DNA from: Candidatus Yanofskybacteria bacterium RIFCSPHIGHO2_01_FULL_41_26
GTDB lineage: Bacteria > Patescibacteriota > Minisyncoccia > 2-02-FULL-40-12 > GWA2-44-9
NCBI GenBank assembly: GCA_001794055.1
Contig: MGJB01000017.1
Span: 21,339 to 85,338 of the forward strand
DNA: 64,000 bases
Direction: 5' to 3'
Notes under the pieces: model-generated
The model's database searches: none
What the model was told of the DNA's origin: nothing
Seen by the model: only the letters and a program-made list of their open reading frames with translations
Position numbers and translations under genes: made by a program
Part shown: piece by piece, positions 4,836 through 56,341 of the stretch
Numbering within the stretch: the stretch's first letter is position 1
Layout: each line of letters starts with the position of its first letter

Positions 4836-6584
4836 TTACTGCACTACCCCTTCTCCTGAACGATCGACAAGATCGTTGCTAGAAATATCCCGGACAGGAA
4901 CAATTATATTCTGTTTGGTAAAAGTATCCACCCCTGAAAGTTTGGAATCTTTTACTAGAAAGACTGGGCTTCCTGTTTGGCTGGTTGACGGATTTATACT
5001 TATCTGAAAACTTGCCTCATATTTAGATCCGGTCACGCCAACTCCTTGCGGTAAAACTCCGGGATTCCAAGCCACTTCGGAAATATTTTTATTGAATGTC
5101 GGTTCCGGCTGTCCCGAACCGACACTTACAATGCTTCTCCAATTTACGCCCGCTGACAATAAGCCGGTTATTTTAACTCCGCTCATATCATTTCCAGGGT
5201 TGGTAATCTGCCAATGAATCGTAAAAGAGGTCTCCTTTCCAACTTCCGGCGGCAAAGGGCCGGACGAACCAAAAGCTGTATCATTATAGTAAGCCGTCTG
5301 TTTTAGCGTCGGCTGAGTAGATATTTTAGTAACCAGATTGGATTCCGCAAAAATTTCATCCCCACCAATGTCGGACGGCACATTCGGAGTACTTAATCTT
5401 GTTGAAGCCCTAACAAAAAGATTTTTGGAACCGGTTGAGCCAGAAGGAATACCGTCCTTAAGCTTAATCCTGAAAGATACCTGCCCCTTTTTGTTGGGAG
5501 ACAGATTTGCAAAATCCGATATCGTGCTTGCGTTCCATAAAATTGTACCATTTGAACTGTCGTAATAACCGCCTTTCGTATCTAAGCTTGAAATGTCATA
5601 CATGTCCCCTTCCAATTTGATTAGCAAGTTTACTCCAATAAGATTGTAGTTGGAACTATTGAAATATTTGATTGTATAATTTAAATCATCGCCGGCAAAA
5701 GCAGAGTAATCAGAAGAATCGTTTACCGAGATCGCCGTACCCAATAAAGCATTGGCAACAACTGATGAAGTTTCGGATTTTTCATAATCAATATATTGAT
5801 CGCCTATTTTTCTTTTTAAAGCTACGGAGATATTTTTTGTTTCTCCTTCTTTTCCATTCAAAAGTCCGCTAATGCTTATCCTTCCGCCGTTACCCTTTTT
5901 GAGAACAGGAATGACCCAAACATAATTTTCCGTGTTTGGCGAAGGAGATGATTTCTGAACACTAAACCCATCAGGATACTTAAACTCAAATCTCAAATCA
6001 TAAATATCACCGTTGGACTCGTTTCTGTAATCCAACACATAACTGATCGCTTGGCCGGGAACTGAATTAGGAGGAGCAGATAAAGTGAGAGACACCGGCA
6101 GACTAATCATCGTGGTAGAGAGAGAAGCAGTCTTTTCAAAAACAGTTTTTAAACTTCCCGCCCCAAAAGACAGATCAATTTTTGCTGTTTTGATATTTCC
6201 CCTGTTGCCCACCAAAAAAGCGGTGAAATCTTTTTCTCCGGACTGACCAACGGCCAACTGGTCTAAAGTGAATATTTCTGAAAATGTATCTTTTCCGTCT
6301 AAGACAGGCCCGCCTCCAGATGGCAAAACAACCGAACCGTCAGGATAAGTAAACTTGAAACTAAGGCTGTTCAGGTTCAGCTTGGTGGTATTTGAATACT
6401 TAACCTTATAAACAACCTCGTCTCCCACAGACGCCTGGGTCGGACCTTCTATTTCCAGTTTGACCCCGGATTCAGAAAAAGACGGGCTTCCAAACCAAAA
6501 CGAAAGGAAACTGACGATAGCCAGCAACAAAGCCAGTAAGATCAGCCATTTCAAAAGTTTATTGTGTGAATATAAAAATTCCAT
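4836..6584 (-). CDS. large membrane-anchored surface protein with repeated beta-rich domains (DUF11/CARDB-like)
   Basis: 582 aa with N-terminal TM/signal. Ser/Thr/Asn/Gly-rich repetitive Ig-like segments. Confidence 0.55.
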   Translation of the reverse strand: MEFLYSHNKLLKWLILLALLLAIVSFLSFWFGSPSFSESGVKLEIEGPTQASVGDEVVYKVKYSNTTKLNLNSLSFKFTYPDGSVVLPSGGGPVLDGKDTFSEIFTLDQLAVGQSGEKDFTAFLVGNRGNIKTAKIDLSFGAGSLKTVFEKTASLSTTMISLPVSLTLSAPPNSVPGQAISYVLDYRNESNGDIYDLRFEFKYPDGFSVQKSSPSPNTENYVWVIPVLKKGNGGRISISGLLNGKEGETKNISVALKRKIGDQYIDYEKSETSSVVANALLGTAISVNDSSDYSAFAGDDLNYTIKYFNSSNYNLIGVNLLIKLEGDMYDISSLDTKGGYYDSSNGTILWNASTISDFANLSPNKKGQVSFRIKLKDGIPSGSTGSKNLFVRASTRLSTPNVPSDIGGDEIFAESNLVTKISTQPTLKQTAYYNDTAFGSSGPLPPEVGKETSFTIHWQITNPGNDMSGVKITGLLSAGVNWRSIVSVGSGQPEPTFNKNISEVAWNPGVLPQGVGVTGSKYEASFQISINPSTSQTGSPVFLVKDSKLSGVDTFTKQNIIVPVRDISSNDLVDRSGEGVVQ

Positions 6585-23129: not shown

Positions 23130-24194
23130 TTGGCAATGAAAATTTTAGGAATTGAAACCTCTTGCGACGAAACAGCGGCGTCGGTAATTGAAGTAACTGG
23201 CAAAAATGGTATTAAAGTTCTATCCAATATCATTTCCTCTCAGGTAAAACTCCATGCCAAATATGGTGGAGTGGTCCCCTCTCTTGCCGCCCGCGAACAT
23301 GTTAAAAATATTGGACATGTTTTTAACTACGCATTAAAGCAGGCCGGTCTGTTGAAGTTTGGCTTTAACAGGCTTGATCTGATTGCTGTAACCCGCGGGC
23401 CCGGCCTCGGGCCCGCTTTGTTGGTCGGTCTAACATTCGCCAAAACAATTTCCTGGCTACATCAAAAACCTATCATCGGAGTAAATCATCTTGAAGGACA
23501 CATATACAGCAACTGGCTATCGCCAGTTGCTGAAATTTCTAAAAAAGATTTTCCGGCACTTAATTTAATAGTGTCAGGCGGACACACAGAACTAGTTCTG
23601 ATGAAAGACCACGGCCAATACAAAATAATTGGAGAAACCATGGACGATGCCGCAGGAGAAGCGTTCGATAAGGTCGCCCGTCTTTTGGATCTTGGATATC
23701 CTGGCGGACCGGCCGTTTCGGCAAGAGCTGAACAATTTTCAATTTCTAATTTTCAATTTCCAATTAAATTTCCTCGGCCAATGAAAAAATCTAAAAATTT
23801 TAACTTCAGCTATTCCGGGTTGAAAACCGCCGTATTATATAAAATTAGGGAGCTGAAAAATGATGGAATCAAACTGACTGTTTCCATCATTGATGAAATA
23901 GCATACGCGTTTCAGGAGGCCGCTATTGACGTCTTAGTACAAAAAACCATACGCGCTGCAAAAGAACATAACGTTGAATCGATTTTGTTGTCGGGCGGGG
24001 TTTCGGCCAATAAATTACTTCGTTCTGAACTTAAAAAAAATGCCACCAAAATGGGTATTAAATATTTTCAACCACCGATGGAATATACAGGCGACAACGC
24101 GGCCATGATAGCAGTTGCCGGATATTTTACTTATTTAAAAAACAAAAAAACCGATTATAAATCGGTTAAAATAGATGCCAATTTGGCCATATAA
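23130..24194 (+). CDS. tsaD: tRNA N6-adenosine threonylcarbamoyltransferase
   Basis: 354 aa. KILGIETSCDETAAS and HxxGH metal motifs of Kae1/TsaD. Confidence 0.9.
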   Translation: MAMKILGIETSCDETAASVIEVTGKNGIKVLSNIISSQVKLHAKYGGVVPSLAAREHVKNIGHVFNYALKQAGLLKFGFNRLDLIAVTRGPGLGPALLVGLTFAKTISWLHQKPIIGVNHLEGHIYSNWLSPVAEISKKDFPALNLIVSGGHTELVLMKDHGQYKIIGETMDDAAGEAFDKVARLLDLGYPGGPAVSARAEQFSISNFQFPIKFPRPMKKSKNFNFSYSGLKTAVLYKIRELKNDGIKLTVSIIDEIAYAFQEAAIDVLVQKTIRAAKEHNVESILLSGGVSANKLLRSELKKNATKMGIKYFQPPMEYTGDNAAMIAVAGYFTYLKNKKTDYKSVKIDANLAI

Positions 24195-43931: not shown

Positions 43932-45083
43932 ATGACTGATGCTAGGCAAATCAGTTCAATGCAAATCAACAATTCAGATATCAAATCAATGAAAGACCTC
44001 CTTTTCAAGGAGGAGTTTTTTCTGCCTAAGCCGGGAAATATATTAAGTGGACAGATAATTAACATCTCCAAAGCCAATGTTGTTGTGGACTTGGGTCACA
44101 TTGGAATCGGCATAGTTTATCCAGGCGAATTTTATGACAACCCCGACAGAATGAAGGGTTTAAAGCCTGGAGACAAAGTATCGGCAATGCTTATTGAGCT
44201 TGAGAATGATGATGGTTACCGAGAGCTGTCTTTGAGATCTGCTCAAATGACTACCGCCTGGCAGGATATTAAAGAAAAGATGGATGCAAGTGAAGTCATT
44301 ACCACCAAAATAGTTAACATCAACAAAGGCGGTCTTATTGTTGAAGTAAGTGGAATTCAGGGCTTCCTTCCACTCTCGCAATTATCGTCTGAACATTATC
44401 CAAAAATAGACGGCGGAGACACCACCAAAATAGTCCAGGCCCTCCAGAAATTCAAAGGCATGGAATTCCAGGTCAAAATTCTTGATTTTAACGAAACGGA
44501 AAACAAGTTAATTGTTTCTGAAAAAGCAATCAAAGAAGAAGCCGCCAAAGAAGAGCTCTCAAAATTAAAAGTCGGAGATTTGATTGAAGGCAAAATAACC
44601 GAGGTTACCGACTTTGGGGCCTTCGTCAAATTAAGCGACACGTTGGACGGTTTGATACACTCATCTGAGATAGATTGGAAATTTATTGAAGACCCGCGAG
44701 AGGTCCTCCATTCGGGAGATGAAATCACTGCAAAAATAATCAGCTTGGAAGGCGGGCGAGTTTCTCTTTCCTTAAAAGCTTTAAAGGAAGATCCCTGGTT
44801 AAAGGCTGAAGAAAAATATCAACCCGGACATAAAGTCAGCGGCCGAGTCATCAAAATCAGAAACAACGGCGCTTTCGTGGAACTCATCGGAGACATAATC
44901 GCTTTTCTGCCGGTGGCGGAACTAGGCGGACAGAATCTTAATGATGTTTTCGAGCTAAATAAAGAATATGAATTTGCCATCGTCAGCTTGGATCCCAAAG
45001 AACACAAAATGGTTTTAACACTACCAGGCAAAAAACCTGTCCAAGAAACTCATGAGGAACCCAAAGAAGAAACTGTTTCCTAA
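43932..45083 (+). CDS. rpsA: ribosomal protein S1-like (four S1 domains)
   Basis: 383 aa of repeated S1 RNA-binding motifs (GQIINISKANVVVDLG, GKITEVTDFGAFVKL, GRVIKIRNNGAFVEL). Confidence 0.7.
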   Translation: MTDARQISSMQINNSDIKSMKDLLFKEEFFLPKPGNILSGQIINISKANVVVDLGHIGIGIVYPGEFYDNPDRMKGLKPGDKVSAMLIELENDDGYRELSLRSAQMTTAWQDIKEKMDASEVITTKIVNINKGGLIVEVSGIQGFLPLSQLSSEHYPKIDGGDTTKIVQALQKFKGMEFQVKILDFNETENKLIVSEKAIKEEAAKEELSKLKVGDLIEGKITEVTDFGAFVKLSDTLDGLIHSSEIDWKFIEDPREVLHSGDEITAKIISLEGGRVSLSLKALKEDPWLKAEEKYQPGHKVSGRVIKIRNNGAFVELIGDIIAFLPVAELGGQNLNDVFELNKEYEFAIVSLDPKEHKMVLTLPGKKPVQETHEEPKEETVS

Positions 45084-45225
45084 AATAAGAACTCAGATTT
45101 CTGTCCCTCCTTCGCAAGTACACGAAAGTAAAGTTAAGCCTGTCTCAAGGGCAAAGATAAGACGACATTCTCAAAAAGAAATTAAAGAAGGAATAAAAGA
45201 GATGAATTAATCTCGAAGTTTTAGT

Positions 45226-45254
45226 TTGACAATCTATTGTTTTTGCTGTAATAT
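45226..45254 (+). promoter_or_regulatory. consensus sigma70 promoter TTGACA-17-TAATAT
   Basis: Read directly. -35 at 45226-45231. -10 at 45249-45254. Confidence 0.5.
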
Positions 45255-45295
45255 ATATCAACGTTCATTACCAACTAAACAGGAGACCCGCACAC

Positions 45296-45694
45296 TTGTT
45301 GCACAGAGTCACCGACAGAGTCCCAGCCAACATCACTGCCCGCCACACTTTTGGCGGCCATAGCGAAATCATCATCCCCGAGAATGACGGCTGTCTCGGT
45401 TCTTGGAATGGCGGTAATTTCGAACTTGAGATTGAATCCATAACTGGGTTTTTTGTTACCCAAGCAGATGAAAAAGGGGAAATCGTTGAGCTCCCCTCGG
45501 ATGAACGGGGCAGAAGAAAAAGATTTACCGTATCAGTTCCCCTCTTCTGGTCTGAAAAAGTCGGCCTATTAATAACAAGGCCTCCGTCAAATTATGTGAA
45601 ATTGCAAGAATCCACCAAATCTTCCCGTGTTTGGGAAATCGCCATCATAACAAATGAGACAAAATTCTTTCTTTCGATTAGACCTCTCCGCTAA
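45296..45694 (+). CDS. hypothetical protein (TTG start; GC about 48%)
   Basis: 132 aa ORF preceded by AGGAGA RBS. Compositionally richer than flanks. Confidence 0.4.
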   Translation: MLHRVTDRVPANITARHTFGGHSEIIIPENDGCLGSWNGGNFELEIESITGFFVTQADEKGEIVELPSDERGRRKRFTVSVPLFWSEKVGLLITRPPSNYVKLQESTKSSRVWEIAIITNETKFFLSIRPLR

Positions 45695-45720
45695 GAGCAT
45701 GTCCATACAAGTATTTTCTG

Positions 45721-45746
45721 CCTACGCCCATTGCGTAGGTTTTTTG
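45721..45746 (+). terminator. rho-independent terminator
   Basis: CCTACGC-ccatt-GCGTAGG followed by TTTTTTG. Confidence 0.5.
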
Positions 45747-45747
45747 T

Positions 45748-45777
45748 TTGACAATTATCGTATTGTCATGTTATAAT
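45748..45777 (+). promoter_or_regulatory. consensus sigma70 promoter TTGACA-(17/18)-TATAAT
   Basis: -35 at 45748-45753. -10 at 45772-45777. Immediately after the terminator. Confidence 0.5.
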
Positions 45778-45812
45778 ATCAGCACGTTCGTTTCCAACCA
45801 AAGAGGTGACAA

Positions 45813-46553
45813 GTGAAAAAAATCGCAACGCTCAGCCTATCGGTTAGGCTAGTAGTGTTCCAATACCATGTCAAAAACGCGAGTATCCCCGAAGGTATTC
45901 CGAAGTACTCGGATTTCCACAAACCAACAGCTAGTCAATTTGAAGGCACTGGTGTCCAAGTCATGGGACCAACTCCTGATGTCCTATCAGAATTTATTGA
46001 CAACAGCGACTATCAATTGATTGATGCATGGCACGCCACAGAAGAAGACTGGACTCGGAGTGCCGTTCGATTCGTGTTCTGTCACAAAGAATATCTGAAT
46101 CCAGCTGGGCTTCGTCCGGAATTCGTCACCCAGAGAGACGGCTTACTAGAGTCTTTCAACAGACTCGCAGGCAAAAACCTATGGCAGACAATGGCTCATA
46201 TCAATCCATTTTTTGTCGCCGGAAAAGCAACAGACGAGACAGTTCTCGTGTTGGATTGCAACTCCCGTAAAGAAGCAACGAAGTTTATTCGGGTCGAGAC
46301 CGGAGAATTCAATCTTGTTCCGGCCAAGACCGAAGACGAAGAAGAGATTTTTGTAAAAGAACCTGTCACCGTCATGGTGGAAGAACCAGTTATCGTTTTC
46401 CAGGGTGGCCGGGAAAAAGTGGAACGAGGAATCGGTCCTGGCATCGGACCCAAGGTCCTCTTGACCGACAAAGCCAACCGATTAAAGTTGGTCAGCAACG
46501 AGGTCGTTCTCGTTGCTCCTGAACCAATTCCGGCTTCGGCTTCAGCCACCTAA
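45813..46553 (+). CDS. hypothetical protein (GTG start; GC about 52%)
   Basis: 246 aa ORF with AAGAGGTG RBS. No recognisable domain. Confidence 0.45.
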   Translation: MKKIATLSLSVRLVVFQYHVKNASIPEGIPKYSDFHKPTASQFEGTGVQVMGPTPDVLSEFIDNSDYQLIDAWHATEEDWTRSAVRFVFCHKEYLNPAGLRPEFVTQRDGLLESFNRLAGKNLWQTMAHINPFFVAGKATDETVLVLDCNSRKEATKFIRVETGEFNLVPAKTEDEEEIFVKEPVTVMVEEPVIVFQGGREKVERGIGPGIGPKVLLTDKANRLKLVSNEVVLVAPEPIPASASAT

Positions 46554-46578
46554 CTATTTTTAAGGAGTAACACTCCCT

Positions 46579-46611
46579 GGCCCGCACAAAAGTGCGGGCC
46601 CTTGACTTTTT
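46579..46611 (+). terminator. rho-independent terminator
   Basis: GGCCCGCAC-aaaa-GTGCGGGCC then CTTGACTTTTT. Confidence 0.5.
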
Positions 46612-46629
46612 ATACGAAAGGAGTATAAT
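46602..46629 (+). promoter_or_regulatory. sigma70-like promoter TTGACT-16-TATAAT with about 270 nt structured leader
   Basis: -35 at 46602-46607. -10 at 46624-46629. Leader has a 16 bp stem (46672-46687 with 46765-46780) and several GC hairpins before ATG 46897. Confidence 0.4.
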
Positions 46630-46896
46630 GATGATATACAGTAAAAATTTAGTTACTTTAATAACTTACTTAGGAAAGAGCGTTTGAGGAGCGAAGGCGA
46701 CGAAATACTGAGGCCAACAGGCCGAATGTATTCAAAATGATATGGTCTAAGATATCTTCGCAGTTCAAACGCTCTTTCCTAAACTACCGCATTTCCGCGG
46801 GATGCCGTCATACGACGACTGCTCCGCTACGCGGGTTGTTATGGGGATGTTCCCCGGAAGAGCTTACGCCCCAAAGGGGCAATTGGAGAGTGTATC

Positions 46897-47715
46897 ATGG
46901 CGAGACAGAATTACAACCGTGTCGGTGTCGAACGTGTGACCGACGAGCAGATTGCAGCGATGGCAAAAACTGGTGTTAGCGACGCCAGCACAGACCTCTC
47001 GGTCGCCGAGCGCGCAGGCGCCGACGACAAGGTCGCGGCCGTCGTGGCGGAGAACGCTCCGCAGCGTGTCTCGACCTTCACACCCGAAGCGCGGGTGTGG
47101 ATCGAGGGCAACAAGGAGCTGAATACCGAGGGCCTCTACGGCCAGCGGAGTCTCCTGGCTATCCGCCCGGAAGACTTCCAGCAGCGCGCACAGTTCCTCG
47201 GACGCCCCCTCACGGTGGCGGATCTCGAGGAGATCCACGGCGTCGACACGTCAGCACCGGCGTCGATGGACTGCACGACCTGCGGGAAGGCTGTGACGTC
47301 CTTCATCCGTACGGCCATGATCGGCCGTGACGGCGACCTGCGCCGCAACCCGGATGGGAACATCACCTACCGCGGTCAGGCCGTGACCACGGGACGTCCG
47401 CTGGCGGTTCACGCAGCTCACACGGGCACGTGCCTGTACAAGTTGCGCAACAACCTCGAACAGACGAAGAAGCTGACGAGTGGCCGAGAGGTCGCCAAGT
47501 TGCTTCACTCGCACTCGTTCGAGCAGGCCAACGCGCGGTTGGCCGGCATCCAGGGTCACTTCAACGCGAAGGACCAGGAGAAGCAGGCGATGAAACAGCG
47601 CCTGGGCGCCAGGACCGGTGGCGACGCCGCCGGATTCAGCAATGGGGCGAACTTCACGCCCCGCACGCCCCGTGGCAAGTCCCGCAAGGAGTCGCGGAAC
47701 TGGAACGCCGAGTAA
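46897..47715 (+). CDS. hypothetical protein, strongly GC-rich (about 63% GC)
   Basis: 272 aa ORF with GGAGAG RBS. Codon usage unlike the rest of the window. Antisense ORFs are composition artefacts. Confidence 0.5.
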   Translation: MARQNYNRVGVERVTDEQIAAMAKTGVSDASTDLSVAERAGADDKVAAVVAENAPQRVSTFTPEARVWIEGNKELNTEGLYGQRSLLAIRPEDFQQRAQFLGRPLTVADLEEIHGVDTSAPASMDCTTCGKAVTSFIRTAMIGRDGDLRRNPDGNITYRGQAVTTGRPLAVHAAHTGTCLYKLRNNLEQTKKLTSGREVAKLLHSHSFEQANARLAGIQGHFNAKDQEKQAMKQRLGARTGGDAAGFSNGANFTPRTPRGKSRKESRNWNAE

Positions 47716-47736
47716 TATCGACGTCAAGCATCCTTG

Positions 47737-47780
47737 GGGAGGAAGAGACACTGGTCTCTCTCCTCCCCCGGGGTGTTTTT
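47737..47780 (+). terminator. rho-independent terminator
   Basis: GGGGAGGAAGAGACA-ctgg-TCTCTCTCCTCCCC then T-run. Confidence 0.55.
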
Positions 47781-47792
47781 TAATACTTAAAT

Positions 47793-47821
47793 ATTGACTT
47801 ATTTAATGTTTTAGTGTATCA
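47793..47821 (+). promoter_or_regulatory. sigma70-like promoter TTGACT-17-TATCAT with structured about 150 nt leader
   Basis: Leader contains a nested 19 bp stem (CAGGTAGTGAAATTTCCAA ... TTGGAAATTCTACTACCTG) and a GGTACgaaaGGTACC hairpin before ATG 47979. Confidence 0.45.
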
Positions 47822-47978
47822 TATGATCAGTACCAAAATCTCGGGAGAATTCATCAGGTAGTGAAATTTCCAATTCTAGATTTTCCGACAAAGTCGGATT
47901 TGGAAATTCTACTACCTGACGAGCTCTTCTACAATTGAATAGGTACGAAAGGTACCAAGAAAGAGGGAGGAAAGAGCC

Positions 47979-49478
47979 ATGCAGGAGATCAGGTACGAGG
48001 ATTTGGCTGACCATTTGGCCAGCGGTAAAGATTTTATTGTTGAGCTGGGCGAACAGAAAGGTATCGGTTCCAGCAGTCTCTTGGTTCGCAAGTGCGAAAA
48101 AACATTTCTGATTGACCGCGGTGCCGCCTTTGAAGGCATTGGTACAAACAAAATTACCACCTTCCCTGTCGGCGGGAATCTTGAGGAAATCTACATTGAC
48201 CTCATGATTTTCACCCACGTGCATGCCGATCACATTTTACAAATCGTGCCGACCGTGTTGATGCACGGCGAATCACGAGTGGTATTTTCAAAGAAGACAC
48301 TAGAGGAGCTGAAAATCGTTTTGGCCGATTCTTTGTCTATTCAGAGAAAAGAAGCCAAGAAAGCCTACTACTCTGGATTACCGGCACCGAAAGCCGAGTT
48401 CAACGAAGAAGATGTTGCAACTTTTCTAGCTCGAGCCGAAGCCGGTTTTTATGAAATAGTGGACACCGATGAAGAAGATGAATGGATTACCTTTGAAGAT
48501 TGGCCAGGATGGGAATTCGGATTCACATTTTCCGGACATACTAAGGGAGCCTTCATCTCTCTCATAAAGTCGCCCGATGGCGACGGCCTCGTCTTTTCAG
48601 GCGATTTGTCCGGCCACAATCAGGAAACAACGCGAGGCGTGAAAACGTTGAGCGAAAGTTTCTTGGCAATGGCCGAATTCCGAAAATGCCGGCGAATCAT
48701 TCTTGTTACGGAAGCCACCAACGGCAACCGCGATATTGAAGAGAGCCAAGAAGAGATGGACGCCCGACTCAAGGCTGTCCTGAATGAAACCCAGCGCAAG
48801 GGTGGCCACGCTCTGATGCCGGTATTCATGGTCAATCGTGGACCAAATATCGTTACCAAATTGGTTCGTCTCGGATTTAAAGTGTTCGTTGCCGGCGGGG
48901 TCAGAAAAACCCTTGCCGTAGAAGTTGGAGCTGACATCGTTGAAAAATGGAAGGCCGACGGAACAGTCATGTTCATTGAGAACGGGCCGAACTATTCGAG
49001 CCAGATCAAGGCTGCCTCTCGAGGCGAATATGGCTTCCGGCCAATTGTTACTTCTTCGGCTACGTTAGACCAGGGAGCCGGAGTTGAATTCGCAATCGAG
49101 ATGTTGCCAGTTCCGGAAAATGTATTGATTTCGACCGGTCATCGTTTTGATGGGTCGGCCATGAAGGAGTTTTTTGAGATAAAGAACCGGCCAATTGGGC
49201 CCGGTCATACGATTGTATTGAATAGAATGGATAGAGACTTTCATTCAGTAAAACATGCGGTTAATGTCAGATGTGGCGGACACCACTTTGACTATTCCGC
49301 ACACTCAGATCGGAAAGAGTTGGTCGCATTTACAACCAACCTCAATCCTGACATTATCTTCATAAAGCATTGCACCGAAGACGGATTCAATGGTCTGGAA
49401 TCGGCCCTGCGTAGCGAGTTGAGAGAAAAGTGCCCTCCGATCAGTCGGGCGCGCCACCTCCATTTGTTTGAATTCTAA
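47979..49478 (+). CDS. beta-CASP family MBL-fold ribonuclease (RNase J/CPSF73-like)
   Basis: 499 aa. FTHVHADH (HxHxDH), FSGH, SGDLSGH, and C-terminal YSAHSD (beta-CASP motif C). Confidence 0.65.
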   Translation: MQEIRYEDLADHLASGKDFIVELGEQKGIGSSSLLVRKCEKTFLIDRGAAFEGIGTNKITTFPVGGNLEEIYIDLMIFTHVHADHILQIVPTVLMHGESRVVFSKKTLEELKIVLADSLSIQRKEAKKAYYSGLPAPKAEFNEEDVATFLARAEAGFYEIVDTDEEDEWITFEDWPGWEFGFTFSGHTKGAFISLIKSPDGDGLVFSGDLSGHNQETTRGVKTLSESFLAMAEFRKCRRIILVTEATNGNRDIEESQEEMDARLKAVLNETQRKGGHALMPVFMVNRGPNIVTKLVRLGFKVFVAGGVRKTLAVEVGADIVEKWKADGTVMFIENGPNYSSQIKAASRGEYGFRPIVTSSATLDQGAGVEFAIEMLPVPENVLISTGHRFDGSAMKEFFEIKNRPIGPGHTIVLNRMDRDFHSVKHAVNVRCGGHHFDYSAHSDRKELVAFTTNLNPDIIFIKHCTEDGFNGLESALRSELREKCPPISRARHLHLFEF

Positions 49479-49501
49479 ATTAGGGCCTTCTAGTGCCCGG
49501 G

Positions 49502-49533
49502 CCTCACGTCGCTTGACGTGAGGCCTTTTTTGT
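49502..49533 (+). terminator. rho-independent terminator (possible overlapping promoter TTGACG-17-AATAAT)
   Basis: GGCCTCACG-tcgcttg-ACGTGAGGCC + TTTTTT. Confidence 0.6.
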
Positions 49534-49559
49534 GCAATAATTAGCAACAAGGAGGTCTC

Positions 49560-50318
49560 ATGGAGACCGAGCAGACTGAACAGATCTTTGAAGAAACTAC
49601 CACCGAGGAGACTCGGAAGCTAATCCTCACTATTTCTACTATTGCCTTTGATTTCGATTTCGTTACTTCTGACCCATCAAGGTCACGGGCTGACGAAATC
49701 AAGGTTTTATTGGTAAAGAACAAGAAACCTTCCCGCAAAAGCAAAGAAGGTAAGCCGGGTGGGTTTGGACTCCCAACAGGACAAGTAGAGAGCCGTGAAG
49801 CGATACTTCATGCTGTCGAAAGAGAAACCGAGGACGAGTCTGGCTGTTCGGTGAAGAAAATAATCGGCAAACTTTTTGTGATCAAAAAGACCTTAAAGAT
49901 ACCCGGGAAGGAGAATCCGGAAAACCTTCCGAACCATCTTAATTATGAGTCCGTCCCCAACGAGATTCATGTTTTTCTTGTCGAGGCTTCCGAGCCACTA
50001 AGACGGATAAGAGAGGCTGATGAAATCGACGGCTCCGTCGAGCCGTGGAAACCTCTTCGGGAAGTATTTGAAATGCCTCTTGCTCAGGACCGGAGTGGAA
50101 GCAGGAAAAATAGCGACGGCATTTATTTTAGCCACATCAAAAGACTATATACGGCCATTGAGTCGATGATTTACAACCCCGAAGAAGAGCTAGTCGATGG
50201 TGAGGCCATCAAGCGATGGCTTGAGCCTAATCGTCAGGCTCTATACTCGGCAATGTCTGATCTTAGAAAGTCTGGTCTTCTGGAAAACTTTATTACTCCT
50301 GACGAAGCTCAGGAATAA
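49560..50318 (+). CDS. NUDIX hydrolase domain protein
   Basis: 252 aa. GQVESREAILHAVERETEDESG fits the Nudix box GX5EX7REUXEEXGU. Confidence 0.7.
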   Translation: METEQTEQIFEETTTEETRKLILTISTIAFDFDFVTSDPSRSRADEIKVLLVKNKKPSRKSKEGKPGGFGLPTGQVESREAILHAVERETEDESGCSVKKIIGKLFVIKKTLKIPGKENPENLPNHLNYESVPNEIHVFLVEASEPLRRIREADEIDGSVEPWKPLREVFEMPLAQDRSGSRKNSDGIYFSHIKRLYTAIESMIYNPEEELVDGEAIKRWLEPNRQALYSAMSDLRKSGLLENFITPDEAQE

Positions 50319-50351
50319 TAAATACCAGATTTAATTACACACGCGCCCCGC

Positions 50352-50382
50352 AATGGGGCGCTATTTTATTTTTCGAAGGACC
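50352..50382 (+). terminator. rho-independent terminator
   Basis: GCGCCCC-gcaat-GGGGCGC + TATTTTATTTTT. Confidence 0.55.
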
Positions 50383-50456: not shown

Positions 50457-52280
50457 ATGATCAAACAATTCACAAAATATATTTCAATAGTTTTCTTAAT
50501 CCTGCTTAGCGCAGCTGGTTTAGTTATGGTTTTTCAGTCCCCTTTTGAAAAAGTTGACAGTGTTTCTGTCTCAGAAATAGTAACCAAAATAAATGCCGGC
50601 CAAGTTAAAGACATAACAGTCAAAGGAGATAATCTGGAAATCGTCCTAAAAGATGGTGACAAGAAATTAACATCTCAAAAAGAGTCGGGTATTTCAGCTT
50701 TTGAAACATTGCTGAACTTAGGAACAAATAAAGACAAGCTCTCAGCTTTTAATATTCAAGTTAAAGACGAAACTGGAACAGTGGGTATGATATTGTCTTC
50801 TGTTATTCCAGTCGTTTTACCATTTCTTTTGATAGTTTTAATTTTCTGGTACATGTTTAATAAGGCTCAAAAGGGATCGATGCAAGCCTTTTCTTTCGGC
50901 AAATCTAAGGCCCGTTTGGCCAACCAGAAAAACGGAAAAAAGCAGGTTACCTTCAAAGATGTTGCCGGACTAATTGAGGCCAAGGAAGAAATATCAGAAG
51001 TTGTAGAATTCTTGAAAGACCCGAAGAAATTTCACAAACTTGGAGCCAAAATACCAAGAGGTATTTTATTAGTTGGTTCTCCGGGAACAGGAAAAACACT
51101 TTTAGCTAAAGCAGTTGCCAGCGAAGCCCATGTTCCATTTTATTTCGTTTCCGGTTCAGAATTCGTCGAAATGTTCGTTGGTGTCGGCGCCAACAGGGTC
51201 AGGGACATGTTTGAGCTAGCAAAGAAAACTGCTCCGGCAATTGTATTTATCGATGAAATAGATGCCGTAGGCAGACACCGCGGAGCTGGTCTTGGAGGCG
51301 GACATGACGAAAGAGAACAAACCTTGAACCAAATTTTGGTTGAAATGGACGGTTTTGATACTGATGCCGCCGTAATTGTAATAGCCGCGACCAACCGACC
51401 TGATATTCTTGATCCGGCTCTTTTAAGACCCGGCCGTTTTGACAGACGGATAATTTTAGATGAACCCTCAATGAAAGATCGAGAAGATATTTTAAAAATC
51501 CATGCCTTGGGTAAACCCTTGGCAAAAATGGTAAACCTTAAACTTGTTGCCGAAAGAACTCCGGGATTATCGGGGGCAGATTTGGCAAATTTAATAAATG
51601 AAGCCGCCATTCTTGCCGCAAGAAATAACCAAAAAGAAATTACACAGGATAATCTTTTTGAGGCAATTGAAAAGGTAATCTTGGGACCAGAAAGACGCAG
51701 CCACATATTTTCCAAAAAAGAAAAAGAGATAACCGCCTACCACGAAGCTGGACATGCATTGGTGTCCTTCTCGCTCCCCTTCACAGATCCGATCCACAAG
51801 GTTTCAATCGTTTCACGCGGAAGAGCGGGAGGATACACGCTCAAATTACCAACCGAAGACAAACATCTTCGATCCCGCTCTGAATTTGAGTCAGAATTAG
51901 CTGTTTTACTCGGAGGATTTGCGGCTGAAAAAATGATATTCAAAGATACTACCACCGGCGCTTCAAATGACTTGAGGGTTGCGTCCGATCTTGCCCGTCG
52001 GATGATTACCCAATATGGAATGTCCGATGTCCTCGGCCCAATAACTTTCGGTGAAAAAGAAGAACTGGTTTTTTTGGGAAAAGAAATTTCAAGCAATAAA
52101 AACTACTCCGAAACAATTGCGTTTCAGATTGATGAGGAAATTAAAAAACTGATATCAAAAGGATTAGTTTCCGCCAAAAAAGTTCTTACTCAAAAGATGG
52201 CAGTCCTCCACAAAATCGCCAAAGAATTAATCAGCAAAGAAACTCTGGAACAAAAAGATTTTTACACGTTGGTGAGGTAA
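50457..52280 (+). CDS. ftsH: ATP-dependent zinc metalloprotease FtsH
   Basis: 607 aa. N-terminal TMs. Walker [19 protein letters not shown] zinc motif. Confidence 0.9.
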
Positions 52281-52572: not shown

Positions 52573-52647
52573 GGGCGTGTAGCTCAGTGGTAGAGCACGG
52601 TACTTATAATACCGGGGTCGGAGGCTCGATCCCTCCCACGCCCACCA
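52573..52647 (+). tRNA. tRNA with anticodon TAT (Ile, AUA-reading)
   Basis: Manual fold: GGGCGTG/CACGCCC acceptor, anticodon stem CGGTA/TACCG, loop CTTATAA, T-arm GGAGGCTCGATCCCTCC, CCA encoded. Confidence 0.7.
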
Positions 52648-54130
52648 TAATAAAACTAGACGACTTTTTTGAAGTCAATTGATGGGCGGCACGAAGTGCC
52701 GCCCATTGATTTTCCCCTGACAAATCCTCTCCGCTCGGCGCGCGCAGCCGCGCCTCGCGGTTGGCCAAAACGAGGTTCGAGCCGAAAAGTTTTTCGGCAG
52801 CAACCTTTTTCTCAAAAAGGTTGCTCTCTTGTGCGATTTTAGGCAGAGATTCTGCCTCTTTTATCCATTCCGACATCGGTTCGAGCCAGCCAGTCCGCTT
52901 TTGTTCAAAGTTGATGATTTGCTCCTCCAGCGACTTTTTCTCGCTCATAAAGTTTCGTTTCTTTTCGAGATAAGTTTCTCGTTCAATGTCCTGTTCCAAA
53001 TAGCCATCTAAAAGTCGCTGGAGTTTAACAGTGATAATTTTTACTTTAGTTTCCGATTCTTGAACAAAAGCGGTTGCGGATTGGGCGGATTCCTTTTTGT
53101 CTTTTTCAAGTATTTTATTCATCTGTTCCGCCCAATCCGGTCTCAAAGAAAATTTTTGAAGCAGAGAGGATAACTGCCGATCCAGTTCTTCCTCGCGGAC
53201 ATAAGGTTGGCTACACTGTATGTTTTTCTTGGTGCAACGATAGTAAGTATGACCTTTTTGGATTTCGGCAGTTATCATTCTTCCGCATTCTTCACAACGC
53301 AATAAATTAGTGAAGGGTTTAGCGATTTTAGGATTACCCTTTGGTTTTCCTCTCTGCTTCATTACCTCTCGGACTTTATCAAAAATTTTCTTTGAGACTA
53401 CTGGCTGGTGCTTGCCTTCATACACCTCACCCGCATAACGAAAATGTCCATAGTAAAATGGATTGGAGAGGATAAAAGAAATTCTGTCTCGGTGAAGTTT
53501 CTTGCCGCCAGAGGAGAGAATACCATGTTGCGCCAAAAAGTTTACAATATCTTCCAAACGAGAGCTGTTTTGTCCATATAGCTCAAAGGCCTTGCGAATA
53601 ATAACTGATTTCTTTTTGTCCACAACGATTGATTTAGTACGAACATCGTTTAGATAACCAACTGGCGCAAGGCCGGGATATTCTCCTCGTCTGACTTTTT
53701 GGCGCAACCCTCGTTTGGTATTCTCACTCAAATTGTCCACATAGTATTTGCTTTGCCCAAAAGCGATATTGAGCATGAACTTACCTTGGGCGGTATTTTC
53801 ATACCAAAACTGTGGAAACTTCAGGCCCGCAAGTCCACCTGTGTCCAAAAGATAAATAATCTTTCCACCATCAACAGAATTGCGCGCCAGTCTGTCAGGA
53901 TGCCAAGCCAAAATTCCGTTTGCTTCACCGCGCTCGATGCGAGCAAACATTTCGTTAAAAATCGGTCTGCCAGGAATTTTGGCCGACTGCTTTTCCACCA
54001 ACTCCTCCACTATCTCCAAATTTTCACGCTTGGCAAACTCGCGCAATTCTGTGAGTTGCGCTTCAATCGAGAGGACTTGCTTATCCTCAACATCTGTGGA
54101 TTTGCGGGCATACAAAAAGAATTTTTGCAT
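52604..54130 (-). CDS. large serine recombinase (resolvase/invertase N-domain + recombinase + zinc-ribbon + coiled coil)
   Basis: 508 aa. N-terminal YARKSTDVEDKQVLSIEAQ (catalytic Ser). RLARN motif. C-terminal CxxC...CxxC. The 3' end overlaps the tRNA 3' end. Confidence 0.85.
   Translation of the reverse strand: MQKFFLYARKSTDVEDKQVLSIEAQLTELREFAKRENLEIVEELVEKQSAKIPGRPIFNEMFARIERGEANGILAWHPDRLARNSVDGGKIIYLLDTGGLAGLKFPQFWYENTAQGKFMLNIAFGQSKYYVDNLSENTKRGLRQKVRRGEYPGLAPVGYLNDVRTKSIVVDKKKSVIIRKAFELYGQNSSRLEDIVNFLAQHGILSSGGKKLHRDRISFILSNPFYYGHFRYAGEVYEGKHQPVVSKKIFDKVREVMKQRGKPKGNPKIAKPFTNLLRCEECGRMITAEIQKGHTYYRCTKKNIQCSQPYVREEELDRQLSSLLQKFSLRPDWAEQMNKILEKDKKESAQSATAFVQESETKVKIITVKLQRLLDGYLEQDIERETYLEKKRNFMSEKKSLEEQIINFEQKRTGWLEPMSEWIKEAESLPKIAQESNLFEKKVAAEKLFGSNLVLANREARLRAPSGEDLSGENQWAALRAAHQLTSKKSSSFIMVGVGGIEPPTPVL
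52645..52779. repeat. inverted repeat X, left copy (about 135 bp, GC-rich)
   Basis: Reverse complement matches 54335-54472 with 3 mismatches. Begins within tRNA 3' end. Contains GGGCGGCAC-gaa-GTGCCGCCC palindrome. Confidence 0.8.
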
Positions 54131-54334
54131 AAAATTATTGGTTAAAACTTAAATAGCCGCCCTTGGTGCGACAAACCCAATTGCTCGGATTTATTTCCAA
54201 AGACGGCTATTAAAAAAGCAATTGGCCCGTTTGTCGCAAATTCAGTATACCATTTCCAAAAAGAAAGCAAAAATTCTTTTTGTATATTTTGGGCAAAACA
54301 ATTCACCGAGACAGAATTTAAAATCGCACAAGAG

Positions 54335-54472
54335 CGAACCTCGTTTTGGCCAACCGCGAGGCGCGCCTGCGCGCGCCGAGCGGAGAGGATTTGTCAGGGG
54401 AAAATCAATGGGCGGCACTTCGTGCCGCCCATTGATTGACTTCAAAAAAGTCGTCTAGTTTTATTATGGTGT
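54335..54472. repeat. inverted repeat X, right copy
   Basis: Reverse complement of 52645-52779. Its 16 bp palindrome is perfect here (AATCAATGGGCGGCAC / GTGCCGCCCATTGATT). Confidence 0.8.
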
Positions 54473-54648
54473 GGCTTTACAACCAAGCTCGAAGTTATTT
54501 TAGCAGAAATTTGTAAAAACGGATAGAGTGCCGCGCTACGCGCGGCCTAACGCTTCTGAAATGCGCTCGGACGGGGCGGGAAGAAAAAGGGGTGTAGGGA
54601 AAATGAATTCCCGCCCTGTCCTCGCTATTTTCGCCGCCGCCAATTTCG
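54469..54648. repeat. inverted repeat Y, left copy (180 bp)
   Basis: Perfect reverse-complement match to 56162-56341. ORF-track pairs 54528..54758(+) and 55980..56282(-) give identical peptides because of this repeat. Confidence 0.85.
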
Positions 54649-54772
54649 TATTTCGCAAAGCGAAATACGCCGCAAGAAACAATTTTGGTATTGCCCTTGC
54701 CCCTCCCGCCCATGCGCGGGCAATATCTTTTGAGCTCCCAATTAAGTTAAAAATCTGATAAAATAAAAACAT

Positions 54773-55681
54773 ATGGCAAATTTTTATCAGCATAAAAACT
54801 ATAGTTTCCAAGATTTTGACCTCTTGGTTGATGATGGGGTTATTTATGCTTGTTATATCAAAAAGGCACCTCGCCTAATAGGCGAACATGACTCCCGCCA
54901 GCCCAATATTTATGCAATGGCAAAAAGCAAGGATAGTGTGAATTGGGAAGAAGTCGGAGATATTATTTTGCCCGTTCCAAATTCTTGGGAAGAAAGTATT
55001 TGGGCTGGCGGGATTTCCAAACAAAATGACAAATACGTTATTTACTACACCGGCACAACCATGAAAGGACGCAACGATTTTTGCAAAATAGGCAAAGCAT
55101 ATTCTGAAGACCTCGCTCATTGGGAAAAAGATTTAGAAAATCCAGTTTTTATTTTTGATTCACAAAGTCCTTACTACTCTGATGAGAAAAAATTGGCCTT
55201 TCGCGACCCTTTCTTTTTTGAACACGAGGGTAGAAAGTATATCCTTTTCTGTGCAAAAGATAAAAAACAACCAGCAGGAAAACAAGGATGTATCGGTGTA
55301 GCTGAAGAAACAGAACAAAATAAATTTTGTTGGATGCCGCCAATTTTTTCTCCCGGAATATATTTTGATGGATTAGAATGTCCTGCACTCTATAAAATCA
55401 AGGATAAATGGTATCTACTTTATGGGATTGACATGGAGAATGACGAAAAGGCATTCCGATATGCTGTAGCAGACTCCCCATTCGGGCCATATAAAACTTT
55501 TAAGGATAATCAGCTCTTATCAAGCAATAACTATACTTGCCGAATTATAAATTTTGGAGGTAAAAATTTGCTTTATCATTGGTTTAGAGATAATCAGAAT
55601 GGCAAGACGCGTGAGCGTCTTGCGCCTCCGAAAGGGGTGCACATTTTAGAAGACGGCAGAATTTCACTTTCGGAAATATAA
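54773..55681 (+). CDS. GH32-like (clan GH-J beta-fructosidase-like) five-bladed beta-propeller glycoside hydrolase
   Basis: 302 aa. FRDPFFF (RDP motif) and GLECPALY (EC motif) of GH32/GH68. N-terminal nucleophile motif not clearly seen. Confidence 0.5.
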   Translation: MANFYQHKNYSFQDFDLLVDDGVIYACYIKKAPRLIGEHDSRQPNIYAMAKSKDSVNWEEVGDIILPVPNSWEESIWAGGISKQNDKYVIYYTGTTMKGRNDFCKIGKAYSEDLAHWEKDLENPVFIFDSQSPYYSDEKKLAFRDPFFFEHEGRKYILFCAKDKKQPAGKQGCIGVAEETEQNKFCWMPPIFSPGIYFDGLECPALYKIKDKWYLLYGIDMENDEKAFRYAVADSPFGPYKTFKDNQLLSSNNYTCRIINFGGKNLLYHWFRDNQNGKTRERLAPPKGVHILEDGRISLSEI

Positions 55682-55690
55682 ACGCAAGAT

Positions 55691-56122
55691 ATGTTAATGG
55701 TTAAAACAAAAATTGGGTCGAGCAAAATTCATGGCGTAGGTGTATTCGCTGATGAGTTTATTCCGAAAGGGACAGTGATTTGGAAATTTACGCCTGGATT
55801 TGACATTTTGAGTTTTCCTGATCTTTTACAAATCTACATCTACAAATATTCGTGGAAAAGCAAGAAGAGCAAGCTATATTGTTTTTCTTCCGACAATGGG
55901 AAGTATTTTAATCACTCAAAAAATTCAAATACCATTTCGGAACACAGAGATGGTGAAGAAGAAGTTACCACAACAGCAGTTAAGGATATTCAAATCGGTG
56001 AGGAACTAACTGATAATTATTCATCATTTGAGGCAGACAGTGATGACAAAAACGTCTTAGAGGAAATTGCCAAAAAATATGCTCTTGTTGATGAGTTAGA
56101 TCCTCGTCTAAAGAAACATTGA
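55691..56122 (+). CDS. SET-domain protein (putative lysine methyltransferase)
   Basis: 143 aa. FNHSKNSN (NHSxxPN-like) and EELTDNY (ELxxDY) SET signatures. Confidence 0.6.
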   Translation: MLMVKTKIGSSKIHGVGVFADEFIPKGTVIWKFTPGFDILSFPDLLQIYIYKYSWKSKKSKLYCFSSDNGKYFNHSKNSNTISEHRDGEEEVTTTAVKDIQIGEELTDNYSSFEADSDDKNVLEEIAKKYALVDELDPRLKKH

Positions 56123-56161
56123 AATAAAATTTTTCTTTGCGGCGTGCCAGTTTTACCGGCG

Positions 56162-56341
56162 CGAAATTGGCGGCGGCGAAAATAGCGAGGACAGGGCGGG
56201 AATTCATTTTCCCTACACCCCTTTTTCTTCCCGCCCCGTCCGAGCGCATTTCAGAAGCGTTAGGCCGCGCGTAGCGCGGCACTCTATCCGTTTTTACAAA
56301 TTTCTGCTAAAATAACTTCGAGCTTGGTTGTAAAGCCACAC
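56162..56341. repeat. inverted repeat Y, right copy (180 bp)
   Basis: Perfect reverse complement of 54469-54648. Ends 12 nt before tRNA-Val. Confidence 0.85.

Follow-up and report, generated by a model that had tools for sequence, protein, structure and literature searches.

RNase E regulates its own synthesis through a stem-loop in its own 5' untranslated region (5' UTR), and 5'-end-dependent decay in Bacillus subtilis relies on the removal of pyrophosphate by RppH, which licenses 5'-exonucleolytic decay by RNase J (PMC3997798). Here we describe a locus that resembles both systems in part. It was found in a 64-kb stretch of contig MGJB01000017.1 from Candidatus Yanofskybacteria bacterium RIFCSPHIGHO2_01_FULL_41_26 (hereafter the window, to which coordinates refer unless a locus label is given). 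The locus comprises five plus-strand genes, g1 to g5 (45296–50318), lying between a gene for a ribosomal protein S1-like protein and the gene for FtsH. To our knowledge, almost no RNA regulation has been characterised in bacteria of the candidate phyla radiation (CPR).

The cluster is probably a vertically inherited RNA-decay module with cis-regulatory leaders, in which one gene, g3, carries a gene-specific compositional anomaly kept by selection or by biased conversion. We report its conservation, synteny and composition, the covariation of two leaders and the excess folding of the g3 mRNA. From these we propose a regulatory mechanism, roles for the enzymes and a reason for the GC content.

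A conserved cluster between the S1 and FtsH genes

More than 15 loci of Candidatus Yanofskybacteria keep the gene order S1-g2-g3-g4-g5-FtsH, which is seen wherever the contig is long enough (L016, L018, L021, L023, L027, L029, L031, L032, L034, L041, L045 and others), and the cluster occupies the same position in all loci spanning it. The comparison set consists of about 25 distinct metagenomic or GTDB loci (labels L0xx), gathered by contig look-ups and by scans of metagenomes and GTDB genomes. The S1 gene, 72–92% identical in relatives, lies upstream of the cluster in every case. Moreover, a near-identical contig, MGKG01000020.1, from a Rifle groundwater metagenome-assembled genome (MAG; GCA_001794675.1), shares 99.995% identity over 20.8 kb. 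Homologs of g3 numbered 24 among 5.8 billion (5.8e9) proteins, and their profile found 20 cluster representatives among 1.84 billion (1.84e9); the named sources are Candidatus Yanofskybacteria MAGs only. Synonymous divergence between genomes has reached saturation in S1, g4, g5 and FtsH (median proportion of synonymous differences, pS, 0.75–0.78).

The cluster, laid out as bS1 - (small open reading frame, ORF) - (g1) - g2 - g3 - g4 - g5 - FtsH, is specific to Candidatus Yanofskybacteria and is not an acquired island. A first-pass annotation, made from the sequence alone, had taken the composition as a sign of horizontal acquisition and had named beforehand what would speak against it: orphan genes conserved in relatives with similar GC content. 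The orphans g2 and g3 are indeed conserved in relatives, and the g3 orthologs have similar GC. The features are as follows:

43932–45083, plus strand: upstream anchor, protein with four S1 domains, ribosomal protein bS1-like (Pfam S1, 7e-44, four stretches)
45226–45254, plus strand: predicted g1 promoter, TTGACA-17-TAATAT, 10/12 consensus (promoter scan)
45296–45694, plus strand: g1, orphan ORF of 132 aa, TTG start
45720–45740, plus strand: predicted terminator hairpin 3' of g1
45748–45777, plus strand: predicted g2 promoter, TTGACA-18-TATAAT, 12/12 consensus (promoter scan)
45813–46553, plus strand: g2, 246 aa, beta-rich, restricted to Yanofskybacteria
46579–46600, plus strand: predicted terminator hairpin 3' of g2
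46602–46629, plus strand: predicted g3 promoter, TTGACT-16-TATAAT, 11/12, TTGACTTTTTAT..GGAGTATAAT (kept in 16 loci)
46636–46896, plus strand: g3 5' leader, predicted conserved structured RNA (folding, covariation, covariance model)
46897–47715, plus strand: g3, 272 aa, 64.8% GC, lineage-restricted
47736–47781, plus strand: predicted terminator 3' of g3, 14-bp GC-rich stem and T6 (read from the sequence)
47794–47822, plus strand: predicted g4 promoter, TTGACT-17-TATCAT, 10/12 (kept in 11 loci)
47822–47990, plus strand: g4 5' leader, predicted structured RNA with a stem spanning 47843–47930 in the window (folding, covariation, covariance model)
47979–49478, plus strand: g4, 499 aa, predicted beta-CASP metallo-beta-lactamase (MBL) ribonuclease (COG1236/CPSF73-like, without KH domains)
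49499–49526, plus strand: predicted terminator 3' of g4, overlapping the -35 box of the g5 promoter
49513–49541, plus strand: predicted g5 promoter, TTGACG-17-AATAAT (promoter scan)
49560–50318, plus strand: g5, 252 aa, predicted Nudix hydrolase
50343–50361, plus strand: predicted terminator hairpin 3' of g5
50457–52280, plus strand: downstream anchor, FtsH

The four promoters proposed in the first-pass annotation were all recovered at their positions with 10–12 of 12 consensus bases, and the scan added a fifth, for g5. The region holds 12 promoter-like sites, compared with 6.7 ± 2.0 in shuffled sequences. The dedicated terminators claimed for most genes were likewise found, as hairpins 3' of g1, g2, g4 and g5 and as the 14-bp stem with its T-run 3' of g3. 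Each of g1–g5 is thus predicted to be a separate transcription unit with a near-consensus sigma70-type promoter and an intrinsic terminator.

Structured leaders of g3 and g4

The two long structured leaders noticed at first reading fold far beyond dinucleotide shuffles. For the g3 leader (46636–46900), the folding energy is -94.7 kcal/mol compared to -68.1 ± 4.3 in the shuffles (z -6.2), with a 19-bp long-range stem; for the g4 leader (47829–47985), it is -49.9 compared to -32.2 ± 3.4 (z -5.3), with an imperfect hairpin of about 36 bp. The g3 leader contains the long-range stem P1 (46670–46688/46764–46782), a P2 hairpin, a GGGGAU..CCCC hairpin with a conserved GAUGGGGAU, and a GCCCC..GGGGC hairpin located directly 5' of the Shine-Dalgarno (SD) sequence GGAGAG. 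The P1 arms are nearly invariant (AGGAAAGAGC/GCUCUUUCCU in 12 of the 14 loci), and the inner half of the stem is variable. The g4 leader takes the form GGAGAAUUCACCAAU - variable hairpin - AUyGGyGAGCUCUUCACAAUUnAAU, followed by a purine-rich SD.

Both leaders covary. When P1 and the 4-pair downstream hairpin of the g3 leader were taken jointly (25 pairs), 93% of the alignment cells were paired, compared to 37–55% in slid controls, and 12 pairs had changed on both sides. In the g4 leader, 82.5% of the cells were paired (32–46% when slid) and 14 pairs had changed on both sides. For each leader, none of 500 shuffles reached the observed values. The inner stem halves vary in sequence and length and yet stay paired, with both-side changes in 6 of 9 and 13 of 14 pairs, respectively. 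Moreover, conserved G-U pairs are frequent (e.g., GU:10 and UG:9 in the g4 stem) and would be A-C mismatches on the other strand; the pattern therefore fits only a plus-strand RNA.

Covariance models were built from the leader alignments (R2 for the g3 leader, R1 for the g4 leader; their E-values are rough). On the plus strand, R2 gave a single match in each of 20 loci, immediately upstream of g3, and none elsewhere in the window; R1 gave a single match immediately upstream of g4 in each of 15 loci and in the window. No further copy of either motif was found in the 64 kb, and the matches include loci absent from model building. In every locus, both leaders lie between a conserved promoter and an SD sequence. 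A search of both leaders against Rfam 15 gave nothing at gathering score (best E 0.15–5.7, unrelated families), so that, of the check proposed beforehand, the Rfam part returned no family and the covariation part was positive. Both leaders are predicted to be previously undescribed conserved structured RNAs, and the earlier suggestion of cis-RNA regulation gains support from their conservation and covariation.

The g4 leader is retained upstream of the divergent beta-CASP genes of L032 (6848–8350) and L042 (766–2157), which are only 35–37% identical to g4, compared with 65–82% in the other loci. The leader is therefore more conserved than the protein it precedes.

No terminator was found within either leader. 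In the g4 leader, RNAalifold predicts a possible pairing of GCUCUU with an AAGAGC that lies shortly before the start codon. In addition, the decamer AGGAAAGAGC occurs twice on the plus strand of the window, in the 5' arm of P1 and in the g4 ribosome-binding site (RBS). These features suggest a possible competition between leader pairing and ribosome access. A helix between GCUUUUCC and GGAAGAGC in the g3 leader was also considered and rejected, as it is not conserved.

Gene g3 and its neighbours

The window has a GC content of 40.8% and g1, g2, g4 and g5 range from 46 to 48%, compared to 64.8% in g3, whose GC contents at the first, second and third codon positions (GC1, GC2 and GC3) are 0.63, 0.49 and 0.82. 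The g3 GC3 lies 7.6 standard deviations (sd) over that of the 61 other ORFs (mean 0.392, sd 0.057; 62 ORFs of at least 120 aa). The shift in composition is thus real and outside the variance within the window. By GC3, g4, g2, g5 and g1 rank between 3rd and 7th of the 62. The second-highest GC3 belongs to an ORF at 582–1064 on the minus strand (GC 0.53, GC3 0.615), which has the second-lowest codon-adaptation index and no Pfam match. Across 21 distinct g3 orthologs, GC is 0.62–0.68 and GC3 0.75–0.89, compared to 0.31–0.54 in S1 and FtsH of the same loci. The high GC content is specific to the gene g3 and has been maintained.

Only the coding sequence (CDS) shows the anomaly. GC3 stays at 0.79–0.87 along g3, with 0.66 in the first ten codons; the adjoining leaders have a GC content of 0.40–0.45, as in other intergenic DNA, and no GC3 gradient towards g3 was found in g2 or g4. 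Codon choice in g3 is the inverse of that of the genome (AAG 84% vs. 26%, GAC 85% vs. 35%, CAG 100% vs. 37%), and its CAI-like index, 0.551 compared to 0.748 ± 0.028, is the lowest of the 62 ORFs.

The g3 mRNA also folds better than expected from its codons. It exceeded synonymous-codon shuffles in all six orthologs examined (z -3.5 to -5.8) and synonymous shuffles preserving dinucleotides in 8 of 8 (z -2.6 to -6.5). Among 18 other genes of the window, the mean z was -0.55 to -0.63 (sd 1.5, minimum -3.9), and S1 and FtsH gave +0.2 to -1.7 across the two shuffle tests. The strongest folding in this background was that of the plus-strand genes at 23130–24194 and 54773–55681 (z about -3.7 to -3.9).

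The g3 protein has a CxxC...HxxHxxxC motif and a basic disordered tail, and its AlphaFold2 core is confident (predicted local distance difference test, pLDDT, >85). Judging from these sequence features, it resembles a basic-tailed zinc-ribbon protein and may possibly bind RNA. A reading of g3 as a non-coding structured RNA was rejected, given that the third codon position is the most variable (differences per codon position 0.34/0.29/0.50), the protein alignment is conserved and the core is modelled with confidence. We also rejected a conserved antisense ORF: frame -1 is fully open in only 7 of 16 orthologs, which a high GC3 would lead one to expect. Both orphans evolve rapidly, with a median proportion of nonsynonymous differences (pN) of 0.35 for g2 and 0.32 for g3, compared to 0.08 for S1 and 0.15 for FtsH. 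In the closest pair, the ratio of nonsynonymous to synonymous rates (dN/dS) is 0.28 for g3 and 0.03–0.11 for the others.

Downstream of its promoter, gene g2 has a short 5' UTR and a GTG start codon, both conserved, and its alleles fall into two identity classes (at least 50%, or at most 39%). The predicted model has an overall pLDDT of 88.9. Neither the g2 nor the g3 model matched any solved structure, and PDB sequence and profile searches with both proteins returned nothing. The status of g1 is less certain: family and profile searches gave no match, the only sign of it in relatives is a single weak tblastn match (L043, E 6e-4), and GC1/2/3 are flat (0.47/0.43/0.47). We take g1 as a putative addition specific to the lineage, with uncertain coding status. 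Its promoter and 5' UTR align as a diverged copy of those of g2; at the protein level, a paralogy of g1 and g2 was rejected (hhalign probability 0.1).

The domain calls of the first-pass annotation, a beta-CASP RNase and a NUDIX protein, hold. In g4, the translation contains THVHADH, which corresponds to HxHxDH, motif 2 of the MBL fold family. The C-terminal RMMBL domain (PF07521) reaches 31 bits, above the gathering score of 21.6 (E 2.5e-7, residues 428–481), and similarity to solved beta-CASP RNases extends over the full length (PDB 2xr1, 3e-11, residues 20–482). Structures of Ysh1, CPSF73, IntS11, FttA and TTHA0252 were matched as well, and g4 has 55 homologs, the Joint Genome Institute (JGI) name of relatives being 'Cft2 family RNA processing exonuclease'. 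As an aCPSF1/FttA protein, g4 reached E 3.7e-23 with TIGR03675 but only 81.6 bits against a cut-off of 580; this match begins at model position 177 and so lacks the KH region. In g5, the Pfam NUDIX score is 30.9 bits (gathering 21.1, E 3.2e-7), and the Nudix box is intact (GQVESREAILHAVERETEDESG), with one Glu replaced by Asp relative to GX5EX7REUXEEXGU. Its scores as an RppH are far under the equivalog cut-offs (PRK00714, 11.7 vs. 116; YtkD, 15.3 vs. 154); by analogy, g5 may have an RppH-like function despite this.

Several features around the cluster deserve a mention. The spacers are insertion-prone: in L023 (about 5450–5705), a small GIY-YIG nuclease ORF (Pfam 6e-18) lies between the g2 terminator and the g3 promoter, and L034 has about 640 extra nt between g3 and g4, about 220 nt of them within the g4 leader. 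A repeat element of about 190 nt with internal inverted repeats, for which Rfam gave no match, occupies differing intergenic sites in relatives (L010:1–234; L023:2872–3060; L037:1271–1389; L034:4736–4806) and, in one strain variant, lies directly upstream of the g4 promoter. Upstream, an unannotated basic ORF of 52 aa (MRNPKKKLFPKIRTQISVPPSQVHESKVKPVSRAKIRRHSQKEIKEGIKEMN; 45052–45210, plus strand) starts in a different frame inside the S1 gene, at its 3' end. Its ATG and stop are kept in most of nine aligned loci, the changes are of synonymous type, the DNA is 82–84% identical, and conservation ends at its stop codon; it had no Pfam match.

Downstream, 52573–56341 looks like an integrated or invertible element. 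It holds a tRNA-Ile(TAT) and, on the opposite strand, a 508-aa serine recombinase (52604–54130) whose 3' end overlaps the tRNA, with nested inverted repeats (52640–52779/54335–54475, 97%; 54469–54648/56162–56341, 100%). In relatives, a pseudouridine synthase and L19 stand in its place. Contigs of the same population are identical across 36.9–52.8 kb, with no single-nucleotide polymorphisms (SNPs) in the cluster, and almost all sequence differences between them fall at 52871–53089. Given this identity, we rejected the idea that contigs break in or after g3 because the gene is hypervariable in the population. The breaks more likely stem from assembly, through coverage or repeats.

Interpretation and comparison with known systems

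We propose that the g3 and g4 leaders would act in cis on their mRNAs, through control of translation initiation, of 5'-end-dependent decay, or of both. The long stem near the 5' end may protect the transcript or serve as a processing site, and a pyrimidine-rich strand in each leader (GCUCUUUCCU for g3, GAGCUCUUC for g4) may pair either within the leader or with the purine-rich sequence close to the RBS. By analogy with RppH and RNase J, g4 and g5 would form a 5'-end-dependent RNA decay pair, in which the g5 Nudix enzyme would convert 5'-triphosphate (5'-PPP) to 5'-monophosphate (5'-P) ends and the g4 beta-CASP enzyme would degrade the RNA. The label of an 'RNA or nucleotide-metabolism module', as first suggested, fits g4 and g5 but stays an inference. 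Genes g2 and g3 could be fast-evolving partners of this pair. The GC-richness of g3 may come from selection on its own transcript, which is A/U-poor, unusually base-paired and written in minority codons. We lean towards such selection rather than GC-biased gene conversion because of the sharp limits at the CDS, the lower GC3 at its start and the excess of folding. Rather tentatively, g3 can be pictured as a 'codon-usage island' held lineage-wide by RNA-level selection, that is, an A/U-poor, minority-codon and self-paired mRNA in a vertically syntenic gene. One possible reason is that the g3 transcript escapes, or is metered by, A/U-directed decay, including that by the neighbouring RNase; another is that slow translation is part of g3 function.

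Several points weigh against this interpretation. The set comprises only about 25 loci, drawn from few environments, and transcription starts and leader function are predicted from sequence. The proposed alternative pairings of the leaders are nearly invariant, so covariation is uninformative on them, and the one proposed for the g3 leader is missing from the two most divergent leaders, L018 and L044. Both g4 and g5 score far under the equivalog cut-offs for aCPSF1, RNase Z and RppH. A shared RNA structure within the g3 CDS was not found (RNAalifold, 23 pairs, -10 kcal/mol); selection for structure would therefore act on overall foldedness. Moreover, pairwise identities of g3 show no correlation with the identities of neighbouring genes (rho -0.11 to 0.26), while rho is 0.88 for S1-FtsH and 0.54–0.77 for S1-g4, S1-g5, g4-g5, g4-FtsH and g5-FtsH. 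For example, the g3 of the window is 59% identical to that of L029 (FtsH 74%) and 46–49% to those of L045 and L023 (FtsH 91%). Two g3 allele classes, defined by indels, each occur in near and far genome groups, and g2 identities are likewise decoupled from the flanking genes. Lineages have therefore swapped alleles of g2 and g3, presumably through recombination within the conserved spacers, and this exchange keeps biased gene conversion a live explanation for g3.

Could GC-biased gene conversion at a hot spot of recombination have raised the GC3 of g3 as a neutral side effect? Such an effect is known from the mouse, where the GC3 of the Fxy gene rose after its move into the recombining pseudoautosomal region. 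The allele exchange, the raised GC1 and GC2, which a pervasive bias predicts, and the mild GC3 enrichment of g2, g4 and g5 all point this way. However, the step is confined to the CDS, with both adjoining leaders at background GC and no gradient in g2 or g4. GC enrichment that spreads into the flanks and decays with distance was not observed, although evidence of recombination was. In addition, g2 is equally decoupled from its flanks, yet its GC3 is only about 0.5, the first ten g3 codons are lower, and, as regards folding, the synonymous codons of g3 do not stand in random order. The GC3 differences separating recombining genes from non-recombining ones that Lassalle and colleagues are said to have found in 2015 appear much below the +0.4 of g3. 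Recombining bacterial genes do have higher GC3 (PMC4450053). We regard an origin by gene conversion as doubtful, though worth keeping in view. A chromosomally fixed conflict system, for defence or host interaction, would instead make g2 and g3 diversifying sensor or specificity subunits and the beta-CASP nuclease and the Nudix protein effectors. The several-fold faster evolution of g2 and g3 than of their flanks, the higher dN/dS of g3, the discrete allele classes distributed independently of genome relatedness and the layout of every gene as an autonomous cassette would agree with it, as would weak similarities of g4 to Cas14 (59 bits) and of g5 to PDC-S07. Yanofskybacteria have, moreover, been reported as parasites of methanogens (PMC9600506, PMC10936435). 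On the other side, no defence-family model was significant, the cluster holds a single conserved housekeeping position in all members and is not patchy, dN/dS stays below 1, same-population contigs show no SNPs in the cluster, and no signal peptide is evident by eye in the N-termini of g2 and g3 (no predictor was run). This alternative therefore appears unlikely.

A recently acquired island, phage-derived or of defence type, whose GC-rich DNA came by horizontal transfer and has not been ameliorated, would explain the strong composition outlier (z 7.6). It could also draw on the serine recombinase beside the tRNA-Ile 2.3 kb downstream and on the spacers that take up insertions in relatives (GIY-YIG ORF in L023, repeat element in L010, extra DNA in L034). 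Atypical composition is, however, common to all g3 orthologs, which share their GC3 despite the saturated synonymous divergence of the flanks; with such saturation, a single ancient import would have ameliorated long ago. The same genes stand in the same order in more than 15 relatives, with none of the patchy distribution of islands, and the g3 family is restricted to this lineage. The tRNA-Ile and the recombinase lie outside the cluster, beyond FtsH, and are missing from relatives that still carry it. The phage or defence origin first considered fares no better, as scans of IMG/VR (with the g3 alignment and two distant homologs) and of BFVD found no relatives, PHROGs returned only generic MBL or Nudix matches, and PADLOC-DB 2.0 gave nothing significant (best E 0.002–0.02, generic MBL/Nudix segments). 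Recent acquisition is accordingly highly improbable. It is also very unlikely that the leaders are DNA-level elements, such as recombination junctions, operators or relics of palindromic mobile elements, and not functional RNA structures. In favour of such elements, the P1 arms are conserved beyond what pairing requires, R2 also matches the minus strand because P1 is palindromic, and the spacers are insertion-prone. Against this, the many conserved G-U pairs would turn into A-C mismatches in a DNA hairpin or on the opposite strand, the inner stem halves vary freely yet stay paired, and the elements always lie between promoter and SD, in one copy per locus and not dispersed.

Returning to a vertically inherited module with structured leaders, the locus carries a caution. 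With its consensus promoters and outlying composition (7.6 sd), it mimics foreign DNA, yet it is conserved and native; island calls based on GC in CPR genomes can therefore mislead. The analysis adds two candidate cis-regulatory RNA motifs, one of them on an RNase gene. It also adds two lineage-restricted families, g2 and g3, with confident models that match no solved structure; since both stand beside a putative RNA-decay pair, they are candidates for new RNase partners. Gene g3, which stands apart from its genome by about 25 GC points (about 40 at the third codon position) even though synonymous sites have saturated, is a natural test case that bears on the debate over selection and biased gene conversion in bacterial GC evolution. 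If true, a codon-usage island combined with two dedicated leaders would be an undescribed way to insulate the expression of one gene from genome-wide rules.

Compared with described systems, the cluster shares atypical GC and codon usage with islands detected by composition and differs in its fixed position in all relatives, its lack of internal mobility genes and the absence of amelioration. With GC-biased gene conversion in bacteria (PMC4450053), it has in common a locally raised GC3 together with evidence of recombination or allele exchange. Here, however, the effect is extreme (GC3 0.82 vs. 0.39). It stops sharply at the bounds of one CDS, with no gradient in the flanks, and comes with excess mRNA folding. 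As for RppH and RNase J of B. subtilis, a Nudix hydrolase and a beta-CASP RNase co-occur, and HxHxDH, RMMBL and the Nudix box are all present. In contrast, g4 is nearer to the CPSF73/aCPSF1/TTHA0252 type, without RNase J-specific matches, g5 lies far under the RppH cut-offs, and the two genes, known here from sequence, are adjacent and separately promoted. For the g4 leader, RNase E autoregulation would be the closest precedent by analogy. Like the stem-loop of the rne 5' UTR in Escherichia coli and the RNase III-cleaved leaders of pnp and rnc (PMC3997798), it places a long conserved stem-loop in the 5' UTR of a ribonuclease gene, its flanks conserved in sequence and its apical part variable, and the neighbouring g3 carries a second leader of this sort. 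It differs in lacking any sequence or Rfam relationship with those leaders and in an RBS-sequestering alternative pairing that is so far predicted only.

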